A stretch of DNA of 32,195 nucleotides from Sedimentisphaeraceae bacterium JB056 (GTDB lineage: Bacteria; Planctomycetota; Phycisphaerae; Sedimentisphaerales; Sedimentisphaeraceae). The DNA is taken from positions 1 through 32,195 of the forward strand of contig JBITAJ010000001.1 in NCBI GenBank assembly GCA_044440125.1, written 5' to 3'. Below the pieces are notes generated by a model. It was not told the DNA's origin. It did not search any database and saw nothing but the letters and a program-made list of their open reading frames with translations. A program made the position numbers and the translations under genes. Each line of letters begins with the position of its first letter. Position 1 is the first letter of the stretch. Of the stretch, positions 5,459-32,129 are shown piece by piece.

Positions 5459-5613
5459 TTGATTCGGTGGTGTTTAGGTCGTTTCTATATGAATAATGAG
5501 CGGCCAGATTTTATCAGGATATTGCGGCTGATTAGAGGCCGCTAAAAAAACTGCCTTTTTCCTAAAAAAAGGCTTGCTATCTTTGATGATTCTTATAAAA
5601 TACCCGTCTCAAT

Positions 5614-5698
5614 GCCCAGGTGGCGGAATAGGCAGACGCGCTAGCTTGAGGGGCTAGTTTCCGTTTAGGAAGTGCTGGTTCGACTCCAGTCCTGGGCA
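5614..5698 (+). tRNA. tRNA-Leu(GAG)
   Basis: Acceptor stem GCCCAGG/CCTGGGC, discriminator A, anticodon arm CTAGC-TT GAG GG-GCTAG, long variable arm, GGTTCGACTCC T-arm. CCA not encoded. Confidence 0.97.
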
Positions 5699-5794
5699 TT
5701 TTTTTCATCAATGCTTTTAGACGCAACAAGAATTTTTTACTAAAGACAGCTGCTTGAGGTTCGCTATAACCTCGCAACTGATTACCATATAAAC

Positions 5795-6066: not shown

Positions 6067-6158
<92 letters not shown>

Positions 6159-9454: not shown

Positions 9455-9547
9455 TGAAGAAACTGTTTGGGAATAATATGCTTGGTTTATCACGGAGAAA
9501 CTCTGCGATGAAGTATTTTGTATTTTAAAAGAAAAGATGTTTGTTAT

Positions 9548-11107
9548 ATGTTTGGACAAAAGCGAAACCCAAGAATTTTAGTAGTAACACCTGAGATAAC
9601 ATATCTTCCTAATGGTATGGGGAATATGGCTAATGCCATGACCGCAAAGGCAGGGGGACTTGCTGATGTTTCCTCTTCATTGATATCGGTGCTTTATGAA
9701 AAGGGTGTTGATGTTCATGTGGCTCTTCCAAACTATCGACGTATGTTCAACGTCAATGCGATGGGTCTTGTTGCCGATGAGCTTCGTATGTATATGAGCA
9801 GGCTCAGTGACAGGCGAATCCATCTTGCGGAAGATCGCATTTTTTATTATCAAAATCAGGTTTACAGTAATTACCTTGACCACAGTATCAAGATAAGTCT
9901 TGCGTTTCAGAGGGAAGTCATATCTCATATAATTCCACAGGTGCAGCCGGACCTTATTCACTGTAATGACTGGATGACAGGTTTGATTCCCGGTTTTGCC
10001 CGTAGAATAAATGTGCCTTGCTTGTTTACTGTTCATAATATTCATACGCAAAAAATAACGCTTGAACATATTGAGGATATGGGTATTGATGCTGCCAATT
10101 TCTGGCGTCATCTTTATTATTCAAGAATACCGGCAAATTATGAAGAAACCCGTTCGGATAATCCGGTTGATCTTTTGAATAGCGGAATATTCGCATCGCA
10201 CTTTATAAATACGGTTAGTCCTACTTTCCTCAAGGAGATCGTGGCGGGTATGCATTCAAATATTATGCCTGAGATACGTTATGAAATAAGCTGCAAGGAA
10301 AAAGCTGGTTGTGCAGCTGGTATCCTTAACTCTCCCGACCCTTCATATAATCCTAAAACTGATAAAGCATTAAAGTATAATTATGATTCGACGGATTTTT
10401 ATGAAAAGAAGAGAAAGAACAAACTTGCTTTCCAAAAGAAGGCTGGGTTGATACAAAATGCCGATGCGCCATTATTTTTCTGGCCTTCGCGGCTTGATCC
10501 TATTCAAAAAGGGTGCTCACTTCTGACAGATATTCTTTATAAGATAATATCTGAATATTGGGATGATAACCTCCAGGTTGCGATTGTAGCCAACGGTCAA
10601 TACCAGAGACATTTTCACGACATAGTATATATGCATAATCTTAAGGGCAGAGTCGCTGTTTGTGATTTTAATGAAAATCTCTCAAGGCTTGGTTTCGCCG
10701 CTTCTGATTTTATGCTTATGCCTTCTTTATTTGAGCCTTGCGGTTTGCCGCAAATGATGAGTCCGATATACGGCGGACTGCCTATCGTGAATGATACCGG
10801 CGGCCTGCATGATACGATAAAGCATATCAATGTTAAGGAATCAACTGGAAACGGTTTTGTTTTCAATGTATATGATTCCAAAGGTTTGAACTGGGCGATT
10901 GACAGTGCCATGGAGTTTTACAAACTTGATGATGATGTTAAATTGCCGCAGATAAAAAGAGTCATGGAAGATGCGGCTTCTCAATTCAATCATTCTGTTA
11001 CTGCGCAAAAGTATATCGATGTCTATGAGCAGATGCTCCAACGTCCGTTACTGAAAAGTTTCAATAATTATGACAGCAATACCAGCTATCCGGAAAAAGT
11101 TGAATAG
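9548..11107 (+). CDS. glgA: Glycogen/starch synthase, GT5
   Basis: KAGGLADV, IHCNDWMT, FTVHN, TVSPT, SRL..QKG, MPSLFEPCGLPQM, TGGLHDT. ATG 9548 preferred over TTG 9518. Confidence 0.92.
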   Translation: MFGQKRNPRILVVTPEITYLPNGMGNMANAMTAKAGGLADVSSSLISVLYEKGVDVHVALPNYRRMFNVNAMGLVADELRMYMSRLSDRRIHLAEDRIFYYQNQVYSNYLDHSIKISLAFQREVISHIIPQVQPDLIHCNDWMTGLIPGFARRINVPCLFTVHNIHTQKITLEHIEDMGIDAANFWRHLYYSRIPANYEETRSDNPVDLLNSGIFASHFINTVSPTFLKEIVAGMHSNIMPEIRYEISCKEKAGCAAGILNSPDPSYNPKTDKALKYNYDSTDFYEKKRKNKLAFQKKAGLIQNADAPLFFWPSRLDPIQKGCSLLTDILYKIISEYWDDNLQVAIVANGQYQRHFHDIVYMHNLKGRVAVCDFNENLSRLGFAASDFMLMPSLFEPCGLPQMMSPIYGGLPIVNDTGGLHDTIKHINVKESTGNGFVFNVYDSKGLNWAIDSAMEFYKLDDDVKLPQIKRVMEDAASQFNHSVTAQKYIDVYEQMLQRPLLKSFNNYDSNTSYPEKVE

Positions 11108-11167
11108 TGTAACATCTGAATTTTTTATGAAATTAGTTGGCTTGACAATTCTTTAAGTGATCACATA

Positions 11168-13186
11168 ATGATAGAACATTGCAAATTAAAAAAAAACGAT
11201 CTTCTTGATGATGAATATCTCAAGCCTTTTTATTCTAATATCGAAAGGCGCAGGGATCGGATAATTCTGACAAAAAAACGCTTTGAAAAGCAAGCCGGTT
11301 CGCTAAAAGAATTTGCGGGCGGTCATCATTACTTTGGACTTCATAAGAGTAAAGATGGCTGGGTTTTTCGAGAGTGGGCGCCGAATGCAAAAAATATTTA
11401 TATCGTCGGTGAATTTTCAAATTGGTTAAGATCGGAAAAGTTTGCTCTCAGAAGACTCAACGATCATGGCAACTGGGAAATTAAACTTGCTCCTGATATT
11501 TTGAAACACGGCATGCAGTATTGCATCAGCATCCACTGGAAGAATGGTGATGGGCAGAGACTGCCATCATATGCAAGGCGAGTCGTTCAGGATCCTGATA
11601 CAAAAATATTTGATGCGCAAGTTTGGTTTCCTGAAGAACCGTATAAATGGAAAAATAAATCACCAGAAAATAATACAGCTCCTTTGATATATGAGTCTCA
11701 TGTTGGAATGGCACAGGAGTATGATGGTGTTGGCAGTTACAAAGATTTTTCTGAAAAAATGCTGAAGAGGATTGTTGATGCCGGCTATAACACTGTTCAG
11801 CTTATGGCACTGATGGAGCATCCTTATTATGGTTCATTTGGTTATCATGTGTCAAATTTCTTCGCCGCATCATCACGGTTTGGAACTCCTGAGGAACTTA
11901 AAGATTTGATCGATAAAGCTCACGGCATGGGACTTCGGGTGATAATGGATCTTGTTCATTCTCATTCTGTTCGTAATGAGAATGAAGGACTCGGTTGTTT
12001 TGACGGCACAAATTATCTGTATTTTCACGAAGGCCCCAGAGGTGTTCATAAACTCTGGGATTCTTATTGCTTTGATTACGGTAAATCAGAAGTGCTTCAT
12101 TTCCTGCTTTCTAACTGTCGCTTCTGGCTTGAAGAATATAATATAGACGGTTTTCGTTTCGATGGCATAACGAGCATGCTCTATACGCATCATGGCATGA
12201 GTAAGGTTTTTACCAGCTATAATGATTATTTTTGTGAAGATGTTGATGAAGATGCTTATGTTTATCTGGCACTTGCCAATGAATTGATACATGAAGTCAA
12301 GCCGTCGGCAATTACCATTGCTGAAGATGTGAGCGGTATGCCGGGGCTTGCCGCCTCTACAGAACAGGGCGGCTGCGGTTTTGATTATCGTATGGCGATG
12401 GGCGTTGCTGATCTATGGTTCAAGATGATGGATATCAGTGATGAACACTGGCCTATGAGTTCACTGGCCTATGAGCTTTTCAATCGCAGGAAAGAAGAAA
12501 AGACGATAAGCTATGTTGAGTGTCACGATCAGGCACTGGTAGGTGGCAAAACGGCTATCTTCACGCTGCTTGATTCCGCTATGTACTATGACATGCATAA
12601 GAACATTGAGAGTATGGTAATTGACAGAGGCATAGCCCTGCATAAGATGATGCGGATTGCTACTGCCGCATCTGCCGCAGGCGGGTATCTGAATTTCATG
12701 GGTAATGAATTCGGTCATCCTGAATGGATAGATTTTCCGCGGGAAGGTAATAACTGGTCGTATCATTATGCCAGAAGGCAGTGGTGTTTGCAGGATGATA
12801 AGAATTTAAAATATCATTATCTCTCTGATTTTGACAAAAGTATGATTTCTTTTTTGAATGAGAAGAATCTTATAGAATACAGACCGCAATTGCTTTATGT
12901 TAATGATCATGATAAGATAATTGCTTTTGAGCGAGGCGGCTATTTCTTTTTCTTCAATTTTAATCCTGTACAATCTTTTACTGATTACGGGATAGTAACA
13001 TTGCCGGGAGAATATCGTCTTATTCTTGACAGTGATGAAAAACAATTTGGCGGCTTTGGCCGGTTGATGCCGGGTCAGTCCTATTATACTATGACACTGG
13101 AAAAAGAAAATGAGATAGTGGATATTCTGAGATTATATCTGCCGGCAAGATGCTGTCTGGTTTTAGAACGAGTTTCCGGCGATTAG
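11168..13186 (+). CDS. glgB: 1,4-alpha-glucan branching enzyme (GH13, eukaryote/Bacteroidota-like type)
   Basis: FREWAPNA, IYESHVGM, EHPYYGSFGYHV, DLVHSH, GFRFDGITSM, IAEDVSGMP, YVECHDQALVG, LNFMGNEFGHPEWIDFPR. Confidence 0.95.
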   Translation: MIEHCKLKKNDLLDDEYLKPFYSNIERRRDRIILTKKRFEKQAGSLKEFAGGHHYFGLHKSKDGWVFREWAPNAKNIYIVGEFSNWLRSEKFALRRLNDHGNWEIKLAPDILKHGMQYCISIHWKNGDGQRLPSYARRVVQDPDTKIFDAQVWFPEEPYKWKNKSPENNTAPLIYESHVGMAQEYDGVGSYKDFSEKMLKRIVDAGYNTVQLMALMEHPYYGSFGYHVSNFFAASSRFGTPEELKDLIDKAHGMGLRVIMDLVHSHSVRNENEGLGCFDGTNYLYFHEGPRGVHKLWDSYCFDYGKSEVLHFLLSNCRFWLEEYNIDGFRFDGITSMLYTHHGMSKVFTSYNDYFCEDVDEDAYVYLALANELIHEVKPSAITIAEDVSGMPGLAASTEQGGCGFDYRMAMGVADLWFKMMDISDEHWPMSSLAYELFNRRKEEKTISYVECHDQALVGGKTAIFTLLDSAMYYDMHKNIESMVIDRGIALHKMMRIATAASAAGGYLNFMGNEFGHPEWIDFPREGNNWSYHYARRQWCLQDDKNLKYHYLSDFDKSMISFLNEKNLIEYRPQLLYVNDHDKIIAFERGGYFFFFNFNPVQSFTDYGIVTLPGEYRLILDSDEKQFGGFGRLMPGQSYYTMTLEKENEIVDILRLYLPARCCLVLERVSGD

Positions 13187-13201
13187 AAAAGCGAGGTTGA
13201 G

Positions 13202-16200
13202 ATGCAGCATAACCTGAACATAAAACAAACTCCTGCTCCTGATTCGAATTTACTTGTAAATTGCGGAGAGTGTATTACTTTTACTCTTTCTATTCCCAAA
13301 GACCTTCACGGCAATGCTTATTTACGCACGAATCTTGGCAAGGCGAGTTTAAGACGCATGGAAATTATCCGGGCTACTGAAACAGAAGGAACTCTGATTG
13401 GTAAAGACTGGTGGGATATTCCTATGAGTCGTGTTTCCGAGGGAGAGTACAGACTCAAAGTTGCAGTTACGGAAACAGGTTGGTTTGCCGCAAAGACATT
13501 ATTTATAAAGCCTGATGGTAAAGTTGACTGGCCTGCCGGTAAGAATGTATATATTAAAGTAGAGCCTGCCGATACGGCATGTAATAATACTATATATACT
13601 GTATTTCCAAGGCAGTTTGGGGAAATGTCAAAGAATTTTCTATATTCTCAAGTCAAGAATCATTCAGGTAATATGAAAGAGCTTGACAATAATGGTTATA
13701 TAGTAATACCGCCTTCAGGAAAATTTCGCGATGTTATAGAAGAGCTTGATTTCATAATCGGCCATATGAATTTTAATATCATCCAGCTTCTTCCTGTGCA
13801 TCCTGTTCCAACGGTATTCGCGAGGATGGGCAGGTATGGAAGTCCGTTTGCCTCTACTGATTTTTTCAATGTTGATCCGGCCTGCGCTTCTGAGGTTCGT
13901 GATGCGACACCAATGGAACAGTTCATTGAACTTGTTGATCAAGTTCACATGAGACTTGGCAAAGTGTTTATCGATTTGCCCGCTAATCATACCGGCTGGG
14001 CGTCTTTGCTTCAGATACATCATCCCGATTGGTTCAAACGTCTTGAAGATAAAAGGTTTAAAAGTCCCGGAGCTTGGGGCGTTGTATGGGAGGATCTATG
14101 TGAACTGGATTATACCAAGACTGAGCTTCAAAATTTCATGACAGATGTTTTTTTGTATTGGGCAAGGCAGGGCGTTGATGGTTTCCGGTGCGATGCCGGT
14201 TATATGATACCTGCTGAGGCTTGGAGATTCATCACCGCAAAAGTTCGTAATGAATTTCCTGATACAATATTTATGCTTGAAGGCCTTGGTGGAAGTTTGT
14301 CAATTACTGAAGAGTTGCTTTCCAGCTCAAATCTGAACTGGGCATATTCAGAGTTGTTCCAAAATTATTCTGCCGAGCAGATAGTCGGCTACCTCAATTA
14401 TTGTGATAATGTTTCGTCAACTCAAGGTACGATGGTTCACTTTGCAGAAACTCATGACAATAATCGCCTTGCAGCTACATCCAAAACATATGCCAAAATG
14501 AGAACCGCAATGAGTGCATTGTTTTCATCAGCGGGTGCGTTCGGTATAACTAACGGCGTTGAATGGTTCGCAGAGGAGAAGGTTGATGTTCATGAGGCTT
14601 CCGGTCTGAACTGGGGCAGTGAAGACAATCAGGTAGAAGCAATCAGAAGACTGAATATTCTTTTGAAGAATCATCCGTGTTTCGAGGCTGGTGCTCAGCA
14701 GAAATTTGTTCACAGCAGCGGCGATCAGACTATGGCTCTTTTGCGTAAAGCCGGAAAAGAAAGCATGAAGAGATGGGCTGCTGAGCTGAGATCTCCTGAT
14801 GGTAAGATACTTGCAGTTGTGAATCTTAATTGTGAAAAGAAAGCAACTGTAAGCTGGAGTGAAGAAGAGTTCAGACCGCAAAAAGATCTTGAGCTGTTTG
14901 ATTTGCTTAGCGGTAATAAAATAGATTGTTGGATTTCCGATGGTCAGGTGTATTGCGAGCTGCCTGAGGGTGCAGTATATGCGCTTGTGAAGGATCGTTT
15001 GTATTTTGATATACTTCTTGAATGGGAAAAGATCGAAGGCTTCAATCTTTCACCTGCTGTATATTGGCGAAGGCTGAATACTATTGTTCAGCAGGCGATA
15101 ATAAATGTCGATGGATTTGTTGATTTCAGTGGCTATGATATTCAGAATCTTGCGAAAAAATTCAAAAAGAATCCGAGAGCCTTTTTCTATGAGATATGTC
15201 ACAATGATGGTTACCTGCCGGTTATATCATGGGATTGTGCTGAAGATAAAGAGCGTGAGGTAATGCTGCCTCCTGAGCATTTTCTTCTTGTATCGGCTCG
15301 TGAACATTTTCTTTGTGAATTGACTGATGAAGATGGTCAGGTTGTTGAACGTGCTTACAGTCTTAAAATAGATGACGGCAGACATATTGCTGTTTTAAAT
15401 TCATTTGAAATATCGCAAGAATATAACACTGATTATAAACTCAAGGTCAGGCTTTATAAGCGTGAGGGAGTTGAGTATATTGATGGTCCGGTGAAAGTGC
15501 TTGCCAAATCCAACGATTCTGTATGCATCGATATTTCTGGAAGCCGACTTCGGCACAATGATGACTATGCTCTGTGCTGCAATGAACTTGGTGCTATTGG
15601 ACAAGTTAGAGCAAAATGGGGTTCGATCAGAAGTAAATATGATGCGTTTCTTTCAGCTAATCTGAATCCGGATTTTCCAGTAGATCGCCATATAATGCTT
15701 ACCCGTCTTCGCGGATGGGTCGTGTATCGCGACTACTCACGTGAGATATCGGTTGAATGCCAAAGTTCTTTCACTACTGATATGAATAATAAGGTTTCGT
15801 GGCGGTTTGATCTTCCTGTTGGTATGGGCAAGCGAATACCATTTGTTATTACACTTGATTTCTCCAAGACAGATAATTCCGCTCAGATAATTTTTACGAG
15901 ACTTGCGGCTCATTGTGAAGATTGTCTTGATGATGGTGAAATTGTTAAATTGATAATTCGGCCGGATATTGAGGATAGATGCAGTCATTGTGTTACAAAA
16001 GCTTATGAAGGCCCTGAGTTCAGTTTCCCCAAAACGATTGAGCCATGGGATAATGGATTTGCATTCAATGCCGAGAATAAAAGAGAGCTTACCATAAAAT
16101 CTGATTCGGATGGTAAGTTTATAAACGAACCGGAGTGGAACTATATGGTGAATCTTCCGGTTGAATATCAAAGAGGACTTGAAAGCTCTACAGATCTTTT

Positions 16201-17527
16201 CAGTCCTGGATATTTCAAATTCAAACTTGGAAGCGGCCGGTCAGTTGTTCTAAATGCGGAAATATCTATTCCAGGATTTGAGCCGGCGCCGATAAAAACA
16301 GATTTGATGTCTGCGCAGACAGACAAGAAATGGAATGTAAAGGATCTGCTTGCTGAGGCGATGAAATTTTATATGGTCAAGAGGGGGCGTTTAAAAACTA
16401 TCATTGCAGGTTATCCATGGTTCCTTGACTGGGGACGCGACACCTTCATATCTTTGCGAGGTTTCATTGCCGCTGGATTTACTGATGAATGCAGAGAGAT
16501 TATAGGGCAGTTCGCAAGATTCGAAGAGAATGGAACCCTGCCTAACATGATACGAGGCGATGATGTATCGAATCGTGATACAACCGATGCTCCGCTCTGG
16601 ATGTTCACGGCGGTAAACGACTATATCAGTAAGACAGGTGATAATTCGATATTGTTAGATGATTGTGATTCAAGGACTTTGCTTGAAGTGCTTATCTCGA
16701 TTGCTAACGGTTATATTGCTTCAACGCCTAACGGCATAAAAGTCGATCCGGAAACTATGCTTGTATTCAGTCCGCCGCATTTTACATGGATGGATACAAA
16801 TTATCCTGCCGCTACTCCTCGCGAGGGTTATCCGATTGAGATACAGGCGTTGTGGTTTGCCGCCTTGAATCTGCTTGGACATTATGATAAGGAAAATGGT
16901 TATAAGTGGCTTTCATTAGCCGATCAGGTTTCTAAGTCTGTTGCCAGATTGTATCCTTCGTCTGATGGAATCGGGTTGACCGATTGCTTGAATGCTCGAA
17001 GCGGAGTCAGTGCGAATATTGCGCAGAAGGATGAGATTCTCAGACCGAATCAGCTTTTTGCGATAACACTTGGCTTGATAGATGACAAGAACTACGCTGC
17101 CGATATTATAAATGCATGTTCGAAGCTGATCATACCCGGAAGTATCAGGAGCCTGGCAAACAGGAAAATCAAAAATAAAATGCCGGTATATAACAATGGC
17201 CGGTTATTGAATAATCCTGATAATCCGTATTTCGGTATTTACGGCGGCGATGAGGATATGTCGAGAAAGCCAGCTTACCATAACGGAACAGCGTGGGGTT
17301 GGGTGTACCCTTCTTACTGTGAAGCGATGGTGAAAATTTATGGTGATTATGCTAAGCCCGCCGCAAATTCGTTGATGCTTTCAATCTATGAAATGTTAAA
17401 GACAGGCTGCATAGGTCATCTTCCGGAAATATGCGATGGCGACTATCCGCATACTCAGAGAGGGTGTCAGGCACAAAGCTGGAGCGTAACAGAAGCATAC
17501 AGAATCCTCGACCTGCTGGAGAAATAA
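13202..17527 (+). CDS. Glycogen debranching enzyme: GH13 domain fused to amylo-alpha-1,6-glucosidase (GH133-like)
   Basis: GH13 motifs QLLPVHP, NHTG, GVDGFRCDAGY, FMLEG, ETHDN; C-terminal IIAGYPWFLDWGRDTFISLRG, TWMD, RPNQLFA, YHNGTAWGW, GCQAQSWS. Confidence 0.9.
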   Translation: MQHNLNIKQTPAPDSNLLVNCGECITFTLSIPKDLHGNAYLRTNLGKASLRRMEIIRATETEGTLIGKDWWDIPMSRVSEGEYRLKVAVTETGWFAAKTLFIKPDGKVDWPAGKNVYIKVEPADTACNNTIYTVFPRQFGEMSKNFLYSQVKNHSGNMKELDNNGYIVIPPSGKFRDVIEELDFIIGHMNFNIIQLLPVHPVPTVFARMGRYGSPFASTDFFNVDPACASEVRDATPMEQFIELVDQVHMRLGKVFIDLPANHTGWASLLQIHHPDWFKRLEDKRFKSPGAWGVVWEDLCELDYTKTELQNFMTDVFLYWARQGVDGFRCDAGYMIPAEAWRFITAKVRNEFPDTIFMLEGLGGSLSITEELLSSSNLNWAYSELFQNYSAEQIVGYLNYCDNVSSTQGTMVHFAETHDNNRLAATSKTYAKMRTAMSALFSSAGAFGITNGVEWFAEEKVDVHEASGLNWGSEDNQVEAIRRLNILLKNHPCFEAGAQQKFVHSSGDQTMALLRKAGKESMKRWAAELRSPDGKILAVVNLNCEKKATVSWSEEEFRPQKDLELFDLLSGNKIDCWISDGQVYCELPEGAVYALVKDRLYFDILLEWEKIEGFNLSPAVYWRRLNTIVQQAIINVDGFVDFSGYDIQNLAKKFKKNPRAFFYEICHNDGYLPVISWDCAEDKEREVMLPPEHFLLVSAREHFLCELTDEDGQVVERAYSLKIDDGRHIAVLNSFEISQEYNTDYKLKVRLYKREGVEYIDGPVKVLAKSNDSVCIDISGSRLRHNDDYALCCNELGAIGQVRAKWGSIRSKYDAFLSANLNPDFPVDRHIMLTRLRGWVVYRDYSREISVECQSSFTTDMNNKVSWRFDLPVGMGKRIPFVITLDFSKTDNSAQIIFTRLAAHCEDCLDDGEIVKLIIRPDIEDRCSHCVTKAYEGPEFSFPKTIEPWDNGFAFNAENKRELTIKSDSDGKFINEPEWNYMVNLPVEYQRGLESSTDLFSPGYFKFKLGSGRSVVLNAEISIPGFEPAPIKTDLMSAQTDKKWNVKDLLAEAMKFYMVKRGRLKTIIAGYPWFLDWGRDTFISLRGFIAAGFTDECREIIGQFARFEENGTLPNMIRGDDVSNRDTTDAPLWMFTAVNDYISKTGDNSILLDDCDSRTLLEVLISIANGYIASTPNGIKVDPETMLVFSPPHFTWMDTNYPAATPREGYPIEIQALWFAALNLLGHYDKENGYKWLSLADQVSKSVARLYPSSDGIGLTDCLNARSGVSANIAQKDEILRPNQLFAITLGLIDDKNYAADIINACSKLIIPGSIRSLANRKIKNKMPVYNNGRLLNNPDNPYFGIYGGDEDMSRKPAYHNGTAWGWVYPSYCEAMVKIYGDYAKPAANSLMLSIYEMLKTGCIGHLPEICDGDYPHTQRGCQAQSWSVTEAYRILDLLEK

Positions 17528-17556
17528 AGGAAGTATAAATTATTTCAGTTTTTATC

Positions 17557-18069
17557 ATGAGATTTTTGAAAATAATTATCAAAATCTTGTTTTGCAGAAA
17601 ATCCCGTAGGAGTTTTTTTATATATTTTAAAGCTCTTAGGGTATCTATCTTTCGATATGATTACGAAATGGCGATTGATTTATATTTAGAATTACTTGAA
17701 TATAATGTTATAAAACCCTATTTGGTATATAAACATCTTGGACAAACATACTATTGGAATAAAGATTATGATAAAGCAGAAATAGCCCTAAGAAAGTCTC
17801 TTGAATTGGGAATGGAAATTAAAAGGCACGACCCAGAACTATACTATCTTCTTGGTTCTATGTGTATTAAGCAGGGAGAATATCAAGATGCATTAATGTT
17901 TTTTGATAAAGCAGTTAAGTATGGGAAAACCAGGAAACATTATAAACTTTTATTTGATATTGATAACGCAAGAGATATGCAGACAGCATTACGTGAAAAT
18001 GAGGATAAGCTTCCATATTTGAGTGCATATTTTAAACAAAACATAAAAAGAACATCTGGTCAGCAGTAA
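17557..18069 (+). CDS. Small TPR-repeat protein
   Basis: TPR-like helices (LGQTYYWNKDYDKAEIALRKSLEL; YYLLGSMCIKQGEYQDALMFFDKAV); visibly AT-rich. Confidence 0.75.
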   Translation: MRFLKIIIKILFCRKSRRSFFIYFKALRVSIFRYDYEMAIDLYLELLEYNVIKPYLVYKHLGQTYYWNKDYDKAEIALRKSLELGMEIKRHDPELYYLLGSMCIKQGEYQDALMFFDKAVKYGKTRKHYKLLFDIDNARDMQTALRENEDKLPYLSAYFKQNIKRTSGQQ

Positions 18070-18189
18070 CGTTTCAAAGGAGCATAATATCATAGGCAGT
18101 GGCAATCGCCTTGTGTAGGAAATTGCAATGAGTATTTCCAAAGTTGTTTTGCGTTTCGTTTTCATCCGCATTCTACATACAAAAAACAC

Positions 18190-18228
18190 AAATCTCAAAT
18201 TCTGAATTCAGGATTTGAGATTTTTTTT
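18190..18228 (+). terminator. 34-bp near-perfect palindrome with T tract (terminator)
   Basis: AAATCTCAAATTCTGA-AT-TCAGGATTTGAGATTT followed by more T; separates the glycogen/TPR genes from the head module. Confidence 0.7.
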
Positions 18229-18334
18229 ATCATACCTAAACCACTGATGGTATTAAATTTAATTTGTCCTCATTAAAAAACTTTCTGTTTAAATTCGCAC
18301 AAAAGCGCAAGCTCTTTTACAGGTGTATATTAAT

Positions 18335-18362
18335 TCAGTACCGCAACCGGTAGGGAGTGGGC
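18335..18362 (+). repeat. 28-bp REP-like repeat, copy 1
   Basis: TCAGTACCGCAACCGGTAGGGAGTGGGC; similar copies at 20478, 21713 and (inverted) 21775. Confidence 0.8.
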
Positions 18363-18406
18363 TGATTACGAACTGCGAACTAAGAACTATATTTCGGGAG
18401 ATAAAG

Positions 18407-19888
18407 ATGGCTTTTGATTTTAGCGGATTCAGTTTGGAACTTGAAGAGGACTTTGTCAAGTGGCTGGTTGAAGATCACTATTCTGTGATCAATGAAAAAT
18501 ATTCAAAATTCTGGGACTATTATCAGAATACCTCTTTGCCTGTTTCAAGAGCCGGTTTGCCTATTGGTAAGGTTAATGACTTTAGTCGTGATTATGTGCA
18601 GGCACAGGAGATTGGTTTGCCGGCGAGGATCACAGGCTTTAACAGACTTTCGAATCTTAGCACTGCGGGTAAAAATGTGCAGCGGAAAGAGATTGTCATT
18701 GAGAATGATATTGCCTGGCGAATAAATGCGATGGTTGATTATCTTTTTGGCAAGGGCTTGACGATTTCTTCAAAGGCACCCGATGGCAAACGCAAAGAAA
18801 AGATTGACGCTATAATAAAGAAAGTCTTCGATTCTGCGGGAGGTATTGAGTTTTTCCAGAACATGTCGGTACTCGGAAGTATCTACGGGTTTGTTGATTG
18901 TATAATTAGGACGGATACATTATTCGATCATTCAAATTCTGTTAGAGATTTTGAGGATGTTTTGAATGCTGCCGCGAAAATAGAGATCGACCTGCTTGAA
19001 GCCACTCACTGCCTACCCGTGTTAAATGAAACAAACTACAAGAAGATAGATTACTATATCCAGCATTTTCCACAGGAAAGAAATTTAGTCTCAGATAAAA
19101 ATTCTTTCCTCTCACGAATAATTGGGTCATCTGGCAGTTCCAAAAGGCAGTTGTCATATGTTACCGAGATTATTTCGGATTCTTCAAGGCAGCTTTATCG
19201 TGATGGCCGGCTCGTAGAGCAAACTCAAAACTTACTTGGCGTGATACCTGTAGTTCATATTCAGAATATTGCTCAGCCTTGCTGCTATGAAGGATTGAGC
19301 GATGTTGAACCTTTGATGCCTCTTCAGGATGAGCTGAACACACGTCTCAGTGATCGCGCCAATCGGATAACGATGCAGAGTTTCAAGATGTATCTTGCGA
19401 AAGGAATAGAGGCTTCGGGAGAGAAGGAGATAATGCCCGGCAGGATGTGGTGTACGGATAATGAACAGGCACAGATCTGCGAGTTTGGAGGGGATGCGGC
19501 AGCTCCTGGTGAAGATTCTCATATTCAGGAGATTCGTGAGGCACTTGATAAGGTTAGCGGAGTTACACCCGTTGCGGCAGGAGTCATACGGGGTAAACTC
19601 GGCAACCTTACAAGTGCTGTCGCATTGAAGATGACGTTGATGGGAACATTGGCCAAGACCGAACGAAAGCGATTGACATTCGGTGAAGGCATAAAACAGA
19701 TTTGTCGTCTGATACTTCTTGCACTCGATGAATCTGATTTGTTTAAGACAAAAGAGTCTGAGCGTGATTTTGAAATTCGTTTTCCAAATCCATTGCCGGA
19801 AGAGCCTGTTGACAAACTCAATGAAGCAAAGATAAAGCTGGAGATAGGCGTGTCGCAGAACAAAGTGCTTGAGGAACTTGGATATTAA
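18407..19888 (+). CDS. Phage portal protein (SPP1 gp6-like)
   Basis: KFWDYY, IVIENDIAWRINAMVDYLFGKG, NLLGVIPVVHIQN, GLSDVEPLMPLQDELN, GNLTSAVAL, IRFPNPLP, SQNKVLEELG; GGGAG RBS before ATG 18407. Confidence 0.85.
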   Translation: MAFDFSGFSLELEEDFVKWLVEDHYSVINEKYSKFWDYYQNTSLPVSRAGLPIGKVNDFSRDYVQAQEIGLPARITGFNRLSNLSTAGKNVQRKEIVIENDIAWRINAMVDYLFGKGLTISSKAPDGKRKEKIDAIIKKVFDSAGGIEFFQNMSVLGSIYGFVDCIIRTDTLFDHSNSVRDFEDVLNAAAKIEIDLLEATHCLPVLNETNYKKIDYYIQHFPQERNLVSDKNSFLSRIIGSSGSSKRQLSYVTEIISDSSRQLYRDGRLVEQTQNLLGVIPVVHIQNIAQPCCYEGLSDVEPLMPLQDELNTRLSDRANRITMQSFKMYLAKGIEASGEKEIMPGRMWCTDNEQAQICEFGGDAAAPGEDSHIQEIREALDKVSGVTPVAAGVIRGKLGNLTSAVALKMTLMGTLAKTERKRLTFGEGIKQICRLILLALDESDLFKTKESERDFEIRFPNPLPEEPVDKLNEAKIKLEIGVSQNKVLEELGY

Positions 19889-19990
19889 CAGAAAACAGTA
19901 AACAGTTCGCGGTTCGTAGTACATAGAAAAGATAGGGCAAAGCCAAGACGAACAGGTTGTTTCGAATTACGAACCACGAACTAAAACCTA
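19887..19990. repeat. Heptamer-based inverted repeat between portal and scaffold genes
   Basis: Tandem AACAGAA/AACAGTA/AACAGTT; AGTTCGCGGTTCGTAGT (19904-19920) is inverted relative to ATTACGAACCACGAACT (19966-19982), 15/17 match. Confidence 0.7.
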
Positions 19991-20014
19991 TTTATTATTA
20001 ATCAGGAGAAAAAA

Positions 20015-20419
20015 ATGGAAAAAGAAAAGACCGAGCAGCAGCCAACAGATGACTTTCAGATTAATGCTTTGAAGCAAAAGCTGAAACTGGCCAGGATCGA
20101 AAATCAGATTACTGTTGAGCTGGCTCAAAATGGAGTGAGTGATCTTGAGACCGCATCTCTTGTCGCAAAGTCGAGGATGAAGGCTTCGGGAAGCTTGGAT
20201 GTAAAGGAAATTGTGGAAAAGATCAAGGATGATAAGCCGTTTCTGTTTGCCAAATCTCAAACGCATGCCACCAGAACTCAGCCAGTGAAAAGTGACAGAG
20301 CTGTAAGCAAGGACGGCCTTTCGAAAGCGGCAAAAAAAGCAGCTAAGAACGCGAGTCGTCAGAACGTTTTCGAATATATGAAAGCCAGGAGAGGCTGGGA
20401 GGTTGAGGTAAAAAGGTAG
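20015..20419 (+). CDS. Putative phage head scaffolding protein
   Basis: Small, charged, helical protein between portal and capsid; ELAQNGVSDLETA and IVEKIKDDKPFLF resemble scaffold motifs; AGGAG RBS. Confidence 0.65.
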   Translation: MEKEKTEQQPTDDFQINALKQKLKLARIENQITVELAQNGVSDLETASLVAKSRMKASGSLDVKEIVEKIKDDKPFLFAKSQTHATRTQPVKSDRAVSKDGLSKAAKKAAKNASRQNVFEYMKARRGWEVEVKR

Positions 20420-20441
20420 GGGCGAAACAATGTTTTCACCC
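20416..20441 (+). repeat. Degenerate GTAG-type REP hairpin
   Basis: GTAG-GGGCGAAA-caatgt-TTTCACCC, overlapping the scaffold stop codon. Confidence 0.45.
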
Positions 20442-20477
20442 GTTGACTTCTGGCCACAAGGAATCCGGCAAACCCTA

Positions 20478-20505
20478 TCAGTACCGCGACTGTGAAGGAG
20501 CGGGC
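20478..20505 (+). repeat. 28-bp REP-like repeat, copy 2
   Basis: TCAGTACCGCGACTGTGAAGGAGCGGGC. Confidence 0.8.
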
Positions 20506-20552
20506 AATATTTGAAATCGAAATAACTAACAAAATTTTACAGGAGAATAATT

Positions 20553-21704
20553 ATGAGTTTTACAGGAAAAGCAACATATTCAAGCGGAGCATCTTTACCT
20601 TCAATAGCAGAAGATGTTTCAGATATTATCGGAATCGTATCGCCTTATGAAACCCCTTTGCTTGATGCAATTGGTGATCCGCTCCGAAACGCGACAAGTA
20701 CTTATCATGAATGGCTTGAGGATGGGCTGCTTCCAAATCGTGATCAGATTGTGACTACTGTTTGGGATGATCCGGCCGATGACAGCCTTTTCAATGTCGC
20801 CAATTCTTCGCGTTTCCGAGTTGGTGATCAAATTCAGGTTGAAGGTTCAAAAGAGCTTATGCTTGTGACCGGCATCGGCAGCGGTTCGCTCACAGTCGTA
20901 AGAGGCTATGGGGCAACGACGAAAGAGAGTTTGTATGATGATGCCACGCTCAACATCATTGGCGGGGCGGCTCTTGAGGGAGAAGACAAACCGGAGAATC
21001 GTTTTACCATAAGACAGAGAAAGGGGAATTACACGCAGATCTTTACCGCGGCGGTTGAGGTGAGCGGCAGTGATCTTGCGGCAAACCAAATAGGGCTTGC
21101 TGACGAGATGGATTATCAGAAACAGGAAAGGCTTCGTGAGCTTATCCGTGATCTGGAGAATACCGTGATAAACGGCGGCATGGCTGTGAGCAATCCTGAA
21201 GGTTCTTCAACTACAAGGCGAACAATGAATGGTATTATTCAGAGCTGCCAGAGCAATCTCTTTACTGCCGGAGATTCGGGGTTGCCAAGCGGCACTGTTC
21301 TCAATGAGGAGCTTGTTAATTTTATGCTCAAACGAATCTGGGAAAACAGCAACTCCGGTGTTGATACGATTGTTGTAGGCGGAGCTCAGAAACGAAAGAT
21401 AAATACTTTCCTTTCCGGTTCACGTGTTTACAGTCCTGATGATACCGCCTACAGAAGTCTTGTTGATCTCTATGAAAGTGATTTCGGTTTGTGCCGAATC
21501 ATTCTTACAAGATGGATGCCTGCTGACAGTGTACTGTTTCTCGATTCTTCAAGGCTGAGCGTGTTGCCGCTTGCGGGCAGAAGCTTCCATTTCAAACCGC
21601 TTGCGTCAACGGGTGATTATGATTCCGGCGAAATTATAGGTGAGTATACTCTTGAGATGAAAAATGAACAAGCTCATGGTTTGCTCAGAGGTCTTTCTGT
21701 GTAA
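20553..21704 (+). CDS. Major capsid protein, DUF5309/SU10-like (HK97 fold inferred)
   Basis: EDVSDIIGIVSPYETPLL, STYHEWLED, NYTQIFTAAVEVSGS, ELIRDLE, RRTMNGI, YESDFG, IIGEYTLEMKNEQAHG; AGGAG RBS. Confidence 0.85.
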   Translation: MSFTGKATYSSGASLPSIAEDVSDIIGIVSPYETPLLDAIGDPLRNATSTYHEWLEDGLLPNRDQIVTTVWDDPADDSLFNVANSSRFRVGDQIQVEGSKELMLVTGIGSGSLTVVRGYGATTKESLYDDATLNIIGGAALEGEDKPENRFTIRQRKGNYTQIFTAAVEVSGSDLAANQIGLADEMDYQKQERLRELIRDLENTVINGGMAVSNPEGSSTTRRTMNGIIQSCQSNLFTAGDSGLPSGTVLNEELVNFMLKRIWENSNSGVDTIVVGGAQKRKINTFLSGSRVYSPDDTAYRSLVDLYESDFGLCRIILTRWMPADSVLFLDSSRLSVLPLAGRSFHFKPLASTGDYDSGEIIGEYTLEMKNEQAHGLLRGLSV

Positions 21705-21712
21705 TGCGACTT

Positions 21713-21802
21713 TCAGAGCCGCGACCGTAAGGAAGCGGGCAAAGCGGTTACTATAAATTTAGACCACACGTATTACCCGCTTACTGACGTGCGCGGCTCG
21801 GA
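21713..21802. repeat. Inverted doublet (REPIN-like) of the 28-bp repeat
   Basis: TCAGAGCCGCGACCGTAAGGAAGCGGGC (21713-21740) and inverted TCCGAGCCGCGCACGTCAGTAAGCGGGT (21775-21802), 34-bp spacer. Confidence 0.85.
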
Positions 21803-21841
21803 TATAATGAGTAAGCTTCTACTAAAAGGGGAGAGGTTATT

Positions 21842-22507
21842 ATGAGAATTTTTTGCAGTGACAGAGATCTGCTTAAATATGAAAGTGAAATATTCAGCGG
21901 CCAGACATTCAGTCAGTTCGTACTTTGCAAAGGGACCAATGCGACGATATCGAATTCGTATCTTTCTGCAAACAATGTAGATTTCATTGCGTCGGGTGTG
22001 GGCGAGGGTAACGTGATATTTGTCAGTGATGAAGTTAATGGGTGGCAGGCTGTTTACGAAGTGGTGCAGTGCGTTCTGGCAGGTCAGATCAGGCTCAGCG
22101 TGATACGTCCTTCAAGTGATGATACGGTTGTGCCTGTCAATGATGGAGTCGGCCTCAGTTTTCAAGTAGTGAGTTTCAAGCCTGTGATGTATGAAGTGTC
22201 GTATGAGCTTGCGAGATATTTTTCTCTTGTTCCCGCTGTAAGTGAATCTCAATATAGTGTTGATGATATCTCGGATGCTTCTGTGTTGCGGGATGCGGCA
22301 ACTTTCGGTTCTCTTGCAAGACTTTACGCAGTCATGCCGTTTGGTAATGACGAAATTAAAAACAGAAGAATTTCTGATAAACATTCTTATTATCTTCAGA
22401 GATATTATCGCTCACGTGAAACGACTTGCGTGTCGATTGATACCGGAGATGACGGCAACAGTGATGCAGTAATTGCCGGCGGCCAAATTGAAATGAAAAG
22501 AGGATGA
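21842..22507 (+). CDS. Hypothetical protein, putative head-completion/connector protein
   Basis: Directly after the capsid gene; N-terminal FCSDRDL, helical LRDAATFGSLARLY...YYLQRY and a short C-terminal beta-tail suggest a gp15-like adaptor with an inserted beta-domain; strong RBS. Confidence 0.5.
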   Translation: MRIFCSDRDLLKYESEIFSGQTFSQFVLCKGTNATISNSYLSANNVDFIASGVGEGNVIFVSDEVNGWQAVYEVVQCVLAGQIRLSVIRPSSDDTVVPVNDGVGLSFQVVSFKPVMYEVSYELARYFSLVPAVSESQYSVDDISDASVLRDAATFGSLARLYAVMPFGNDEIKNRRISDKHSYYLQRYYRSRETTCVSIDTGDDGNSDAVIAGGQIEMKRG

Positions 22508-22530
22508 TTAAATTGAGAGGAGAATTGAAG

Positions 22531-23112
22531 ATGAAGAAAATATTTATGATGATTTTGATGTTGAGTGTTTTACTTGGCGGATGTTCTGTTTTTAAGACGG
22601 CTCCGGATGCATCTCAAAAAACGAACGCTTATTTGCTGAGCAAGACAATCGGCAAGGTTTCTGATGCGGCATGTGAAAAAGAAGGGTCTGAGGAAATCTG
22701 TCAGCTTGCCAGGCTTGCTGATAAACAAACCGATGCAGTGCTTGAGTATTATGGCGTAACAAAAGACGAGACAGAACTCGCTGCCGGGCAGCTTCTTGAT
22801 GCAAGAGTGAGAGAGATTTCTCAAACGGCATACGAAAATGCTTCGGCCTCAAACACTGCAACCGGTTCAGTAAACGAATTACTTGATATAGCAATTGGTA
22901 TCTGCGGACTTTGCGGCGGTGCTTTCGGAATCAAAGCCGTTTCATTTTTGAATAATGCAAAAAACAAAGCAGTGGCTCTCGAGGAAATTATATGCGGTAA
23001 TGAAAAATTCAAAGCAGAATATCCTAAATACAGCGAACTCTTTAAGCAATCGCAAAGCGGCCAATCCAAAACAACAAAAGAACTTGTAACAAACATCAAA
23101 GATAACGCATAA
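22531..23112 (+). CDS. Lipoprotein with internal hydrophobic segment, unknown function
   Basis: GAGGAG RBS at 22517-22522; MKK-hydrophobic-LLGG|C lipobox; IAIGICGLCGGAFGIKAVSFL hydrophobic stretch. Confidence 0.7.
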   Translation: MKKIFMMILMLSVLLGGCSVFKTAPDASQKTNAYLLSKTIGKVSDAACEKEGSEEICQLARLADKQTDAVLEYYGVTKDETELAAGQLLDARVREISQTAYENASASNTATGSVNELLDIAIGICGLCGGAFGIKAVSFLNNAKNKAVALEEIICGNEKFKAEYPKYSELFKQSQSGQSKTTKELVTNIKDNA

Positions 23113-23117
23113 ACAAC

Positions 23118-23156
23118 AAGCCGGAAGACGTAAAAGTTTTCCGGCTTTAATTTTTT
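23118..23156. terminator. Terminator between convergent units
   Basis: AAGCCGGAAGAC-gtaaaa-GTTTTCCGGCTT hairpin, then TAATTTTTT. Confidence 0.75.
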
Positions 23157-31730: not shown

Positions 31731-32129
31731 TTGAATAATTCATTGTCAAAGAAGATATTGAATTGCTGTGCTATTGTCTGCGTACCGATAGCAATGCTTA
31801 GTTTTTTTAGTTTGATTTCTTTTTTTATGGCAGTAACGTCACAAGAAGCAATACAACAATATGATAAACCATTACCGGAAGATTGGGTTGCTGGAGCTAT
31901 GAATCACGGTGATTATTATAAGTGGTGGACAATTTCGGAGAATATGTCATTATTTATATTGGCATTAATTGCTCTTCTACTATCAGTTGTTACTATAATA
32001 TTATCTGTTATTTTGCCAAAATTAATTGAGGAAAAAGGAGAGAACGAAACGGGGTCAAGAGAACGAAACGGGGTCAGGTCTCTTTTATCTCTTTTGATAA
32101 CAGGTGTTTATGTTTTGGTAAAGAGGTAA
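31731..32129 (+). CDS. Hypothetical membrane protein whose 3' end runs into a repeat element
   Basis: TTG start, two hydrophobic segments, AT-rich; the last ~30 codons are repeat-derived. Confidence 0.5.
   Translation: MNNSLSKKILNCCAIVCVPIAMLSFFSLISFFMAVTSQEAIQQYDKPLPEDWVAGAMNHGDYYKWWTISENMSLFILALIALLLSVVTIILSVILPKLIEEKGENETGSRERNGVRSLLSLLITGVYVLVKR

Follow-up and report, generated by a model that had tools for sequence, protein, structure and literature searches.

Introduction

To our knowledge, gene transfer agents (GTAs) have been described in only a handful of lineages, and the best-studied family does not extend beyond the Alphaproteobacteria. In this work we analyzed the first 32,195 bases of contig C1 (JBITAJ010000001.1) of Sedimentisphaeraceae bacterium JB056, a stretch that we call the window and that belongs to a genome (labelled G000) of 4.54 Mb in 33 contigs, 99.77% complete. 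The window holds five genes of a phage-type head module, and we consider it likely, judging from gene content, conservation and descent, that they make up the head operon of a GTA-like or viriform system of the class Phycisphaerae, one that is ancient, stems from a phage and has been passed on vertically, and that in this genome would be reduced and tail-less. According to the best reading of these sequences, the system would be host-owned and split into the head operon and a separate packaging locus.

Different described systems resemble this one in part. RcGTA, the agent of Rhodobacter capsulatus, shares with it head and packaging genes of phage origin that are fixed at more than one chromosomal locus, deep vertical inheritance and purifying selection, and integrase and replication genes are absent from both. 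In addition, a gene encoding a helix-turn-helix (HTH) protein resembling sigma region 4 lies beside the packaging genes and recalls GafA, which we take to be the activator of RcGTA. Unlike RcGTA, the system described here belongs to the phylum Planctomycetota, is built from a capsid of the SU10/DUF5309 type and an SPP1-type portal, includes a hub and fibres with no recognised tube or tape measure, is tail-less in G000 and is a putative producer of particles for DNA transfer. Capsid-forming phage-inducible chromosomal islands (cf-PICIs) are mobile islands that need a helper phage and that bring regulators and an integrase with them; they, too, possess their own capsid, portal, adaptor and terminase and no tail, which would give tail-less capsids, whereas the element studied here lacks an integrase, lies on two contigs and has been inherited with its host across the class. 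The capsid family (PF17236) and the order portal-scaffold-capsid-adaptor are those of phage SU10 and DUF5309-type phages, but no phage genome surrounds the element. Lastly, encapsulins are likewise host-owned shells with the HK97 fold, but they are devoid of portal, scaffold, adaptor and terminase, all four of which are present and conserved here.

As far as titles and abstracts go, the literature on gene transfer agents, viriforms, prophages, capsids and terminases in Planctomycetes, Phycisphaerae and Sedimentisphaerales does not describe this element. A term search of a 2024 study of Phycisphaerae genomics (PMC11266412) gave no hit for phage, capsid, prophage, gene transfer or terminase, and a 2025 review (PMC12673574) mentions phage genes once, on plasmids.

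Distribution and Descent of the Head Operon

The capsid gene and the portal gene are present in one copy each in G000. Within the order Sedimentisphaerales, the capsid gene was found in 33 of 41 genomes (31 of the 36 high-quality ones) with 62-71% identity, and it is single-copy in 32 of these 33, the one double match being a gene split over two contigs. At the level of the class, 165 of the 301 sampled genomes carry it (51-71% identity). A sample of the phylum gave capsid matches at E <= 1e-10 in 40 of 301 cases; 25 of them lie outside the class, and 18 of those are full-length and 46-51% identical. Among the 80 best genome matches, the named titles are those of Sedimentisphaerales, Anaerohalosphaeraceae, Phycisphaerae or Planctomycetota.

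The comparison of the loci revealed a recurrent gene order. In the 16 loci of 20 kb that were fetched, the order portal-scaffold-capsid-adaptor recurs and the flanks differ, with the capsid and the adaptor-like gene present in all 16 and the portal gene in 15; profile hits for the four genes in this same order were obtained in 70 of the 80 loci named Sedimentisphaerales or Phycisphaerae. In a strain of about 96% nucleotide identity the module occupies the same locus, with 142 differences over 18171-21738 and only a tetratricopeptide repeat (TPR) gene missing.

The phylogenetic tree of the capsid (38 rows) recovers the order as a clade, with a value of 95 in the Shimodaira-Hasegawa-like approximate likelihood ratio test (SH-aLRT). 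When family labels are mapped on it, 18 changes are needed, against a minimum of 15 and a mean of 29.2 for shuffled labels, and not one of the 200 shuffles came down to this value. Beyond the host clade, the closest phage capsids share 35-36% identity and are reached across a very long branch; capsids of cultured phages are at most 31% identical (the best being that of Sporosarcina phage Lietuvens), and those of viral contigs at most about 39%, except for two copies that fall in the host clade and are treated below.

Concerning selection, the ratio of nonsynonymous to synonymous substitution rates (dN/dS) is best estimated from the pair G003-G005, the cleanest one, which belongs to the window's family, has the same five-gene tail-less form and shows a dS of 0.6-1.1. 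The values are 0.105 for the portal, 0.104 for the scaffold, 0.087 for the capsid, 0.079 for the adaptor, 0.139 for the lipoprotein and 0.093 for the large terminase subunit (TerL). The remaining pairs gave 0.08-0.39 or were saturated, many cross-genus comparisons having a dS that is undefined or above 2; the portal value of G012-G031 (dN 3.75) was dropped as an artefact of open reading frame (ORF) or frame, and TerL of G038-G026 was left out because of an in-frame stop. These ratios indicate that the five head genes and TerL are under purifying selection.

An earlier note on this DNA, made from the letters of the window, had read the five genes as a retained host module, and this idea is supported by their vertical conservation in the order and the class together with a dN/dS of 0.08-0.14. 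The comparisons that it had proposed point in the same direction: the module is spread across Phycisphaerae with its gene order kept, the capsid tree follows host taxonomy, and dN/dS, being about 0.1, is far from the neutral value of 1 that had been set as a refutation.

The Packaging Locus

The same note had seen no terminase, and had suggested that one might be encoded elsewhere in the genome. The absence holds within the window only; an orphan locus coding for the small (TerS) and large terminase subunits exists at C12:144895-149761 of G000 (Table 1), and its divergence is correlated with that of the head genes. TerL was first picked up by a match to Terminase_6N (23.1 bits), the only one of the Pfam families that matched, Terminase_3 and TerL_ATPase giving no usable match in five genomes. 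Beside the packaging locus in G000, no repressor of the LexA/cI type was found.

In the alignment of 17 TerL sequences, a P-loop (Walker A), an acidic pair of Walker B, three acidic positions of the nuclease and a four-cysteine cluster are invariant in all 17, where the names Walker A, Walker B and nuclease are those that we presume to apply to these motifs. The four cysteines (C242, C247, C250 and C256) lie between the ATPase and the nuclease parts, and this cluster could be a metal site.

TerL was found in 38 of the 41 genomes of the order (48-60% identity) and was matched at E <= 0.001 in 206 of 301 genomes of the class, weak matches included. TerL and the capsid gene are both missing from three families, f11 (0/12), f20 (0/18) and f23 (0/12), and in f13 and f22 TerL alone was found, with no capsid gene. 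The pairwise distances of capsid and TerL are correlated (r 0.92 by the Mantel test, 0 of 2000 permutations as high, over 13 genomes that are kin and hence not independent), and those of capsid, portal and TerL in general show r values of 0.89-0.96, again with 0 of 2000 permutations as high.

As to the origin of the split, the pair of ATPase genes and TerL are syntenic in G001, G003, G008 and G048. In G048, which belongs to another order, they stand directly upstream of the portal gene, and in G057, the second sampled genome of the same family, about 2.6 kb separate a TerL match and the capsid gene. On this basis, the ancestor probably had one contiguous cluster. We also observed that several families (G000, G001, G003, G019) have the host gene rpiB beside TerL or placed between it and TerS, and that the 23S-rRNA-IVP four-helix gene is an additional insertion in G000.

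Tail Genes and Their Loss

In most relatives, 9-10 extra genes separate the adaptor from the lipoprotein. Of the 80 named loci, 61 show this long form. A short form, in which the adaptor is accompanied by a 95-aa gene and usually by the lipoprotein, is seen in about 10; a single locus extends from portal to adaptor only, and eight are uninformative. The lipoprotein is the last gene of the cluster in long-form and short-form relatives alike.

Two families of the extra region could be related to tail components. The conserved N-terminus of one, a 262-aa family, matches a "Long tail fiber" structure in the PDB (8kec, E 1e-6). The other is a protein of 608 aa, whose model (predicted local distance difference test, pLDDT, 76.9) gave 61 PDB matches at E <= 0.001, the best (6e-12) to baseplates of contractile injection systems; as modelled, it is a predicted hub or spike similar to gp27, VgrG and Mu gp44. 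For the 608-aa protein, the ESM Atlas provided leads only (DUF5048 and Prophage_tail, at 0.92), PDB profile searches with the 608-aa and 261-aa proteins returned nothing significant, and no full-length 608-aa orthologue is present in the 6-kb flanks of the 80 named loci. The 95-aa protein has an N-terminal transmembrane helix followed by a coiled-coil-like remainder, and its gene, which the window lacks, directly precedes the lipoprotein gene in many relatives (e.g., L033:1214-1501 and L033:597-1175 in a long-form locus); the two products look like a possible i-spanin/o-spanin pair.

No homologue of nine tail-module families was detected in G000 by tblastn (E <= 1e-3), and profile hidden Markov models (HMMs) of these families, run over the six-frame ORFs of the genome, gave best hits of E 0.0041 and 0.15. 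By these searches, the tail-tip genes have been lost in this genome. The suggestion that the tail might be encoded elsewhere is not borne out in an assembly as complete as this one, and the two alternatives that had been offered, a split GTA-like agent or a tailless particle, merge into one, the system being both split, with its packaging genes elsewhere, and tail-less. The form seen in the window, with the lipoprotein directly after the adaptor, recurs in families f1 and f2, and f7 keeps the 95-aa gene; as the capsid tree places f1 and f2 apart from f7, the loss of the tail probably happened at least twice.

Capsid Copies Carried by Phages

Two complete phage genomes, IMG/VR records with direct terminal repeats, namely G601 (62,460 bp, CheckV 100%; loci L192-L194) and G602 (41,165 bp; loci L063 and L191), carry a capsid copy that is 64% identical to that of the window and is nested inside the host clade of the capsid tree. 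The copy is embedded among early and DNA-metabolism genes (DnaB, RuvC, RecT, PD-(D/E)XK and methylases). G601 has a separate late block of its own, which includes a TerL, a 693-aa portal and fibre proteins matching the 462-aa profile. These copies may represent the capture of the host's domesticated capsid gene, and hence a conflict between phage and host.

The Five Genes of the Head Operon

The matches of the portal and the capsid to their Pfam families are above the curated cut-offs (72.7 bits against 25.5 for PF05133, and 289.9 bits against 24.1 for PF17236, the latter covering profile positions 11-291 of 292). The portal gene probably starts at ATG 18407 and not at the mechanical GTG 18323, since its orthologues (46-55% identical) align from residue 29 and GGGAG lies 7 nt upstream of the ATG. 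Orthologues of the scaffold share 27-37% identity.

Neither ORF4 nor ORF5 belongs to a Pfam or PHROG family. An AlphaFold2 (AF2) model of ORF4, built from an alignment of 21 orthologues, has a mean pLDDT of 91.1. In an exhaustive VIA-wide structure search, 19 of the 50 rows listed are neck, connector or adaptor chains of phages, aligned over residues ~1-221 with Z values of 5.6-8.1, which are middling, a Z of 7-8 being common by chance; they include the Mu neck subunit 5ydn (Z 8.1, root-mean-square deviation 3.5, 101 residues), the GP4 portal-tail complex 8jov_2 (Z 7.8) and HK97 gp6 (Z 5.6). Matches in BFVD reach template modelling (TM) scores of only 0.2-0.3, and a PDB profile search gave no significant match. 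In the loci of the relatives, a gene of this type always follows the capsid gene. On account of its modelled fold, this fixed place and its conservation, ORF4 may be called adaptor-like, and the neck and adaptor chains among the VIA-wide rows are in line with the term "connector-like" used for it before.

ORF5 displays an invariant Gly-Cys in its lipobox, a helical region, a hydrophobic stretch rich in Gly (residues ~125-149) and a C-terminal tail. In the ESM Atlas it matches only unnamed planctomycete and viral clusters, and its sole PHROG match to a spanin has an E value of 0.32.

Leader Sequences

A two-block motif (CAAAnGCGCAAGTT ... AATTATAGAGG) is found 40-170 nt 5' of the portal gene in about 55 of 75 loci; the top 9-mers are shared by as many as 39 of these 75 sequences, and shuffling brings this number down to 12 or fewer. 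In the window it takes the form CAAAAGCGCAAG. The core CAAANGCGCAAG has 15 copies in G000, with about 0.3 expected by chance; one is at window position 18300 and the other 14 are located upstream of host genes, which, from their N-termini and with no family scan, we presume to be ychF, smpB, a clpC-type ATPase, glmM and a der-type GTPase, among others. Thus, CAAANGCGCAAG is a putative promoter or regulon motif of the host, and the capsid operon is among the units that it precedes. A search 5' of the packaging operon, TerS and TerL did not reveal the motif that lies upstream of the portal gene.

Two repeats shared with the rest of the genome are also embedded in the leaders: D1, which resembles repetitive extragenic palindromes and has 25 copies of 33 nt genome-wide within 5 mismatches, three of them in module leaders, and the D4 heptamer repeat, with 11 copies genome-wide and two in the module. 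The host-wide repeats and the host motif in the leaders, together with the same locus in the strain of about 96% identity, are signs of long residence.

Organization of the Locus and Its Surroundings

The ORF list of the window contains five intact, uninterrupted frames in one orientation (+) over 18323-23112. The picture drawn in the earlier note, of five co-oriented ORFs in head-gene order between two hairpins, is confirmed by the ORFs, by the family matches and by both hairpins, which are real. The ribosome-binding sites that it had called strong are AGGAG-type sites 5' of the scaffold, capsid and ORF4 genes; for the portal, the site is the GGGAG mentioned above. Terminator-like sites number 11 in the region, against 5.1 +/- 2.4 in shuffles. 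Family scans of the 21 ORFs of the window revealed no terminase, integrase or tail family, and no integrase, att repeat or replication gene was found in the window.

The family scan of the neighbours agrees with the flanks having been described as cellular: upstream are genes for glycogen phosphorylase, synthase, branching enzyme and debranching enzyme, followed by the TPR gene, and downstream are genes of the dockerin and N-methyl pseudopilin types. GC content and GC skew of the module are the same as those of the flanks. The TPR gene (17557-18069) lies within a stretch of very low GC (0.325), and in the strain of about 96% identity 45 letters replace positions 17527-18170, which indicates a recent gain or loss beside the module. 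The set of glycogen genes, spanning 6911-17527, is closed by a gene (13202-17527) coding for a very long protein (1441 aa) in which an alpha-amylase-type domain is fused to both the N-terminal and the C-terminal domain of glycogen debranching enzyme. Genes for tRNA-Leu(GAG) and tRNA-Ser(GCT) are located at 5613-5699 and 6067-6157, 12 kb 5' of the module; no integrase lies close to them. A perfect 19-nt tandem duplication is present near the end of the window (32039-32076).

Table 1. Coordinates of the head operon, its signals and the packaging locus; positions with no contig name refer to the window.
Feature	Position	Strand	Evidence and remarks
Terminator-like hairpin	18190..18223	+	15-bp stem and T run; closes the TPR gene that precedes the module, whose 5' boundary it forms
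Host promoter/regulon-type motif CAAAAGCGCAAG (putative)	18300..18311	+	~105 nt upstream of the portal ATG
Mechanical ORFs	18323-19888, 20015-20419, 20553-21704, 21842-22507, 22504-23112	+	
Leader of the portal gene	18332..18390	+	D1 33-nt hairpin repeat at 18332-18364; D4 ACGAACT-type heptamer repeat at 18365-18390
Portal protein, SPP1 gp6-like	18407..19888	+	PF05133 E 3.8e-20; phrog_64 E 8e-26
D4 heptamer repeat, second copy	19966..19991	+	Upstream of the scaffold gene
Head scaffolding protein	20015..20419	+	Weak family match (PF06810 E 2.7e-5, under the Pfam threshold; phrog_194 E 1e-3) together with position
D1 hairpin repeat	20475..20507	+	Scaffold-capsid spacer
Major capsid protein, SU10_MCP/DUF5309 type	20553..21704	+	PF17236 E 3.3e-86; phrog_1328 E 2e-80
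D1 hairpin repeat	21710..21742	+	Capsid-adaptor spacer
Head-to-tail adaptor-like protein (ORF4)	21842..22507	+	AF2 fold: helical bundle with an inserted beta-barrel
Membrane lipoprotein (ORF5)	22504..23112	+	Lipobox; likely start ATG 22531
Terminator-like hairpin	23118..23147	+	12-bp stem and T run; shared with the convergent downstream gene
161-aa protein	C12, first gene of the packaging locus		Sigma-70 region-4 HTH
219-aa ABC-type P-loop ATPase	C12, second		
235-aa ATPase partner	C12, third		phrog_886
TerS, 131 aa	C12, fourth		phrog_2538 E 8e-8
Host rpiB, then 23S-IVP four-helix gene	C12:147354-148255 (fifth and sixth)		TerL next
TerL, 492 aa	C12:148283-149758 (L039:1249-2727)		phrog_2 E 3.6e-22

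Discussion

If the genes act as predicted, portal and scaffold would nucleate the capsid shell, TerS and TerL would cut DNA and pump it into the shell, and the adaptor would close the portal. The lipoprotein might work at the envelope, perhaps in a spanin-like release, and in many relatives it would do so paired with the 95-aa protein. Without hub and fibres, the particles of G000 would be unable to inject DNA unaided, and the candidate benefits for the host may therefore be a donor-only release of DNA, the use of foreign tails, or a role in phage conflict.

A GTA might be expected to show three things: structural and packaging genes of phage origin that reside in a cellular genome with neither integration nor replication genes, vertical inheritance under purifying selection, and a tail or other device by which packaged DNA can enter a recipient. 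The first of these is found here, and so is the second, with the exception of the two phage-borne capsid copies; the third is missing from G000. Particles that take up random stretches of host DNA, shorter than the element itself, and transfer them, as those of GTAs do, would here be a prediction. Tail-less particles cannot deliver DNA, so that the activity that defines GTAs may be missing here. Other observations weigh on the same side. No endolysin or holin was recognised. The assignment of ORF4 as an adaptor depends on middling Z-scores, and a Foldseek search of its model against the PDB gave zero matches at E <= 0.001. The capsid gene was not found in eight of the 41 genomes of the order, five of which (93-97% complete) also lack the Pfam capsid family and yet keep TerL, so that TerL may have a use independent of the capsid. 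TerL has an in-frame TAG in G026 (L053) and is split in G030 (L040/L097), and G034 (L037/L172) has no portal gene beside the scaffold gene despite enough flank; these three cases, all in family f5, look like local decay. Finally, with the copies of G601 and G602 lying within the host clade, inheritance has not been purely vertical.

Different explanations might be proposed for the same genes. The tail-less set of capsid and terminase might serve the host as a weapon or a bargaining chip in its conflict with phages, which would carry the early-region capsid copies as decoys; we hold this to be unlikely. The shell would then act during infection, by packaging or cutting DNA or by taking the tails of the invader, and the decoys would poison or redirect it. 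Taken as a rival account of why the genes are kept, namely as a host-run abortive or hijacking device or one that borrows tails from infecting phages in the manner of capsid-forming satellites, it appears rather improbable to us. It draws on the position of the host-clade capsid copy among the early genes of G601 and G602, the former having its own late module, on the retention of the adaptor after tail loss, and on that of TerL in genomes without a capsid gene. On the other hand, no defence-system family was seen beside either locus, in scans not aimed at such families; the 377-aa gene after the G601 portal is only a candidate capsid, so that the host-like copy could be the working capsid gene of that phage; and the long form, which is the ancestral one and includes a hub and fibres, has the look of a self-sufficient particle. 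HK97-fold shells are known to be reused as compartments, and a window without tail, lysis enzyme or terminase could suggest a DNA-free protein shell, that is, an encapsulin-like nanocompartment that happens to keep a portal. We regard this as very unlikely, because portal, adaptor, TerS and a TerL predicted to be catalytically intact are all kept; moreover, the head genes have been inherited together with TerS and with a TerL whose catalytic motifs do not vary, the purifying selection seen on the capsid gene is also seen on portal and adaptor, and there is no conserved cargo gene beside the operon, since the flanks differ between genomes.

Just as unlikely, in our view, is a mobile satellite or a (pro)phage that is still active, for instance a capsid-forming island that a helper phage would move. 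Head genes and terminase without a tail do recall the content of capsid-forming satellites, the position of the locus differs between genomes and phage genomes have the capsid gene as well; but neither an integrase nor an att repeat or a replication gene is present in the window, packaging is encoded on a different contig, each gene has one copy, their tree follows host taxonomy down to class level, the strain of about 96% identity has the same locus, and host repeats and a host motif occupy the leaders. Least credible of all is a functionless remnant of a decaying prophage, as might be imagined from the lost tail genes, the broken TerL of two relatives and the capsid gene missing from some genomes. 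This reading is already contradicted by the data: the five genes and TerL are intact with a dN/dS of 0.08-0.14, conservation is class-wide at 51-71% identity, and gene order is fixed.

Regarding the conditions under which a GTA-like system of Phycisphaerae might be induced, one report (PMC10945688) states that an isolate of this class released hexagonal particles after the addition of nitrate or ammonium, without lysis, and that the 21.9-kb genome ascribed to these particles is not in the host chromosome; we consider them a lead for induction conditions and not evidence for the element. Some of the records bearing the element (e.g., L122) have titles in the style of strains and not of metagenome-assembled genomes (MAGs), so that bench work looks feasible.

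The genomes analyzed form a natural series, from a contiguous cluster (the family of G048, in another order), through a split system with a tail tip (most Sedimentisphaerales), to one both split and tail-less (the family of JB056). That head and terminase genes are strongly selected after the loss of the delivery device raises the question of the use of a DNA-packaging capsid without a tail. The phage copies of the host capsid gene may point to an undescribed arms race, and if the genes do serve in phage conflict, a domesticated virion would have been put to a new use. If, as we consider likely, the locus is instead part of an ancient GTA-like system, it would represent an independent domestication, of comparable depth to that of the best-studied family, which started from another phage lineage and took place in another phylum, the Planctomycetota.

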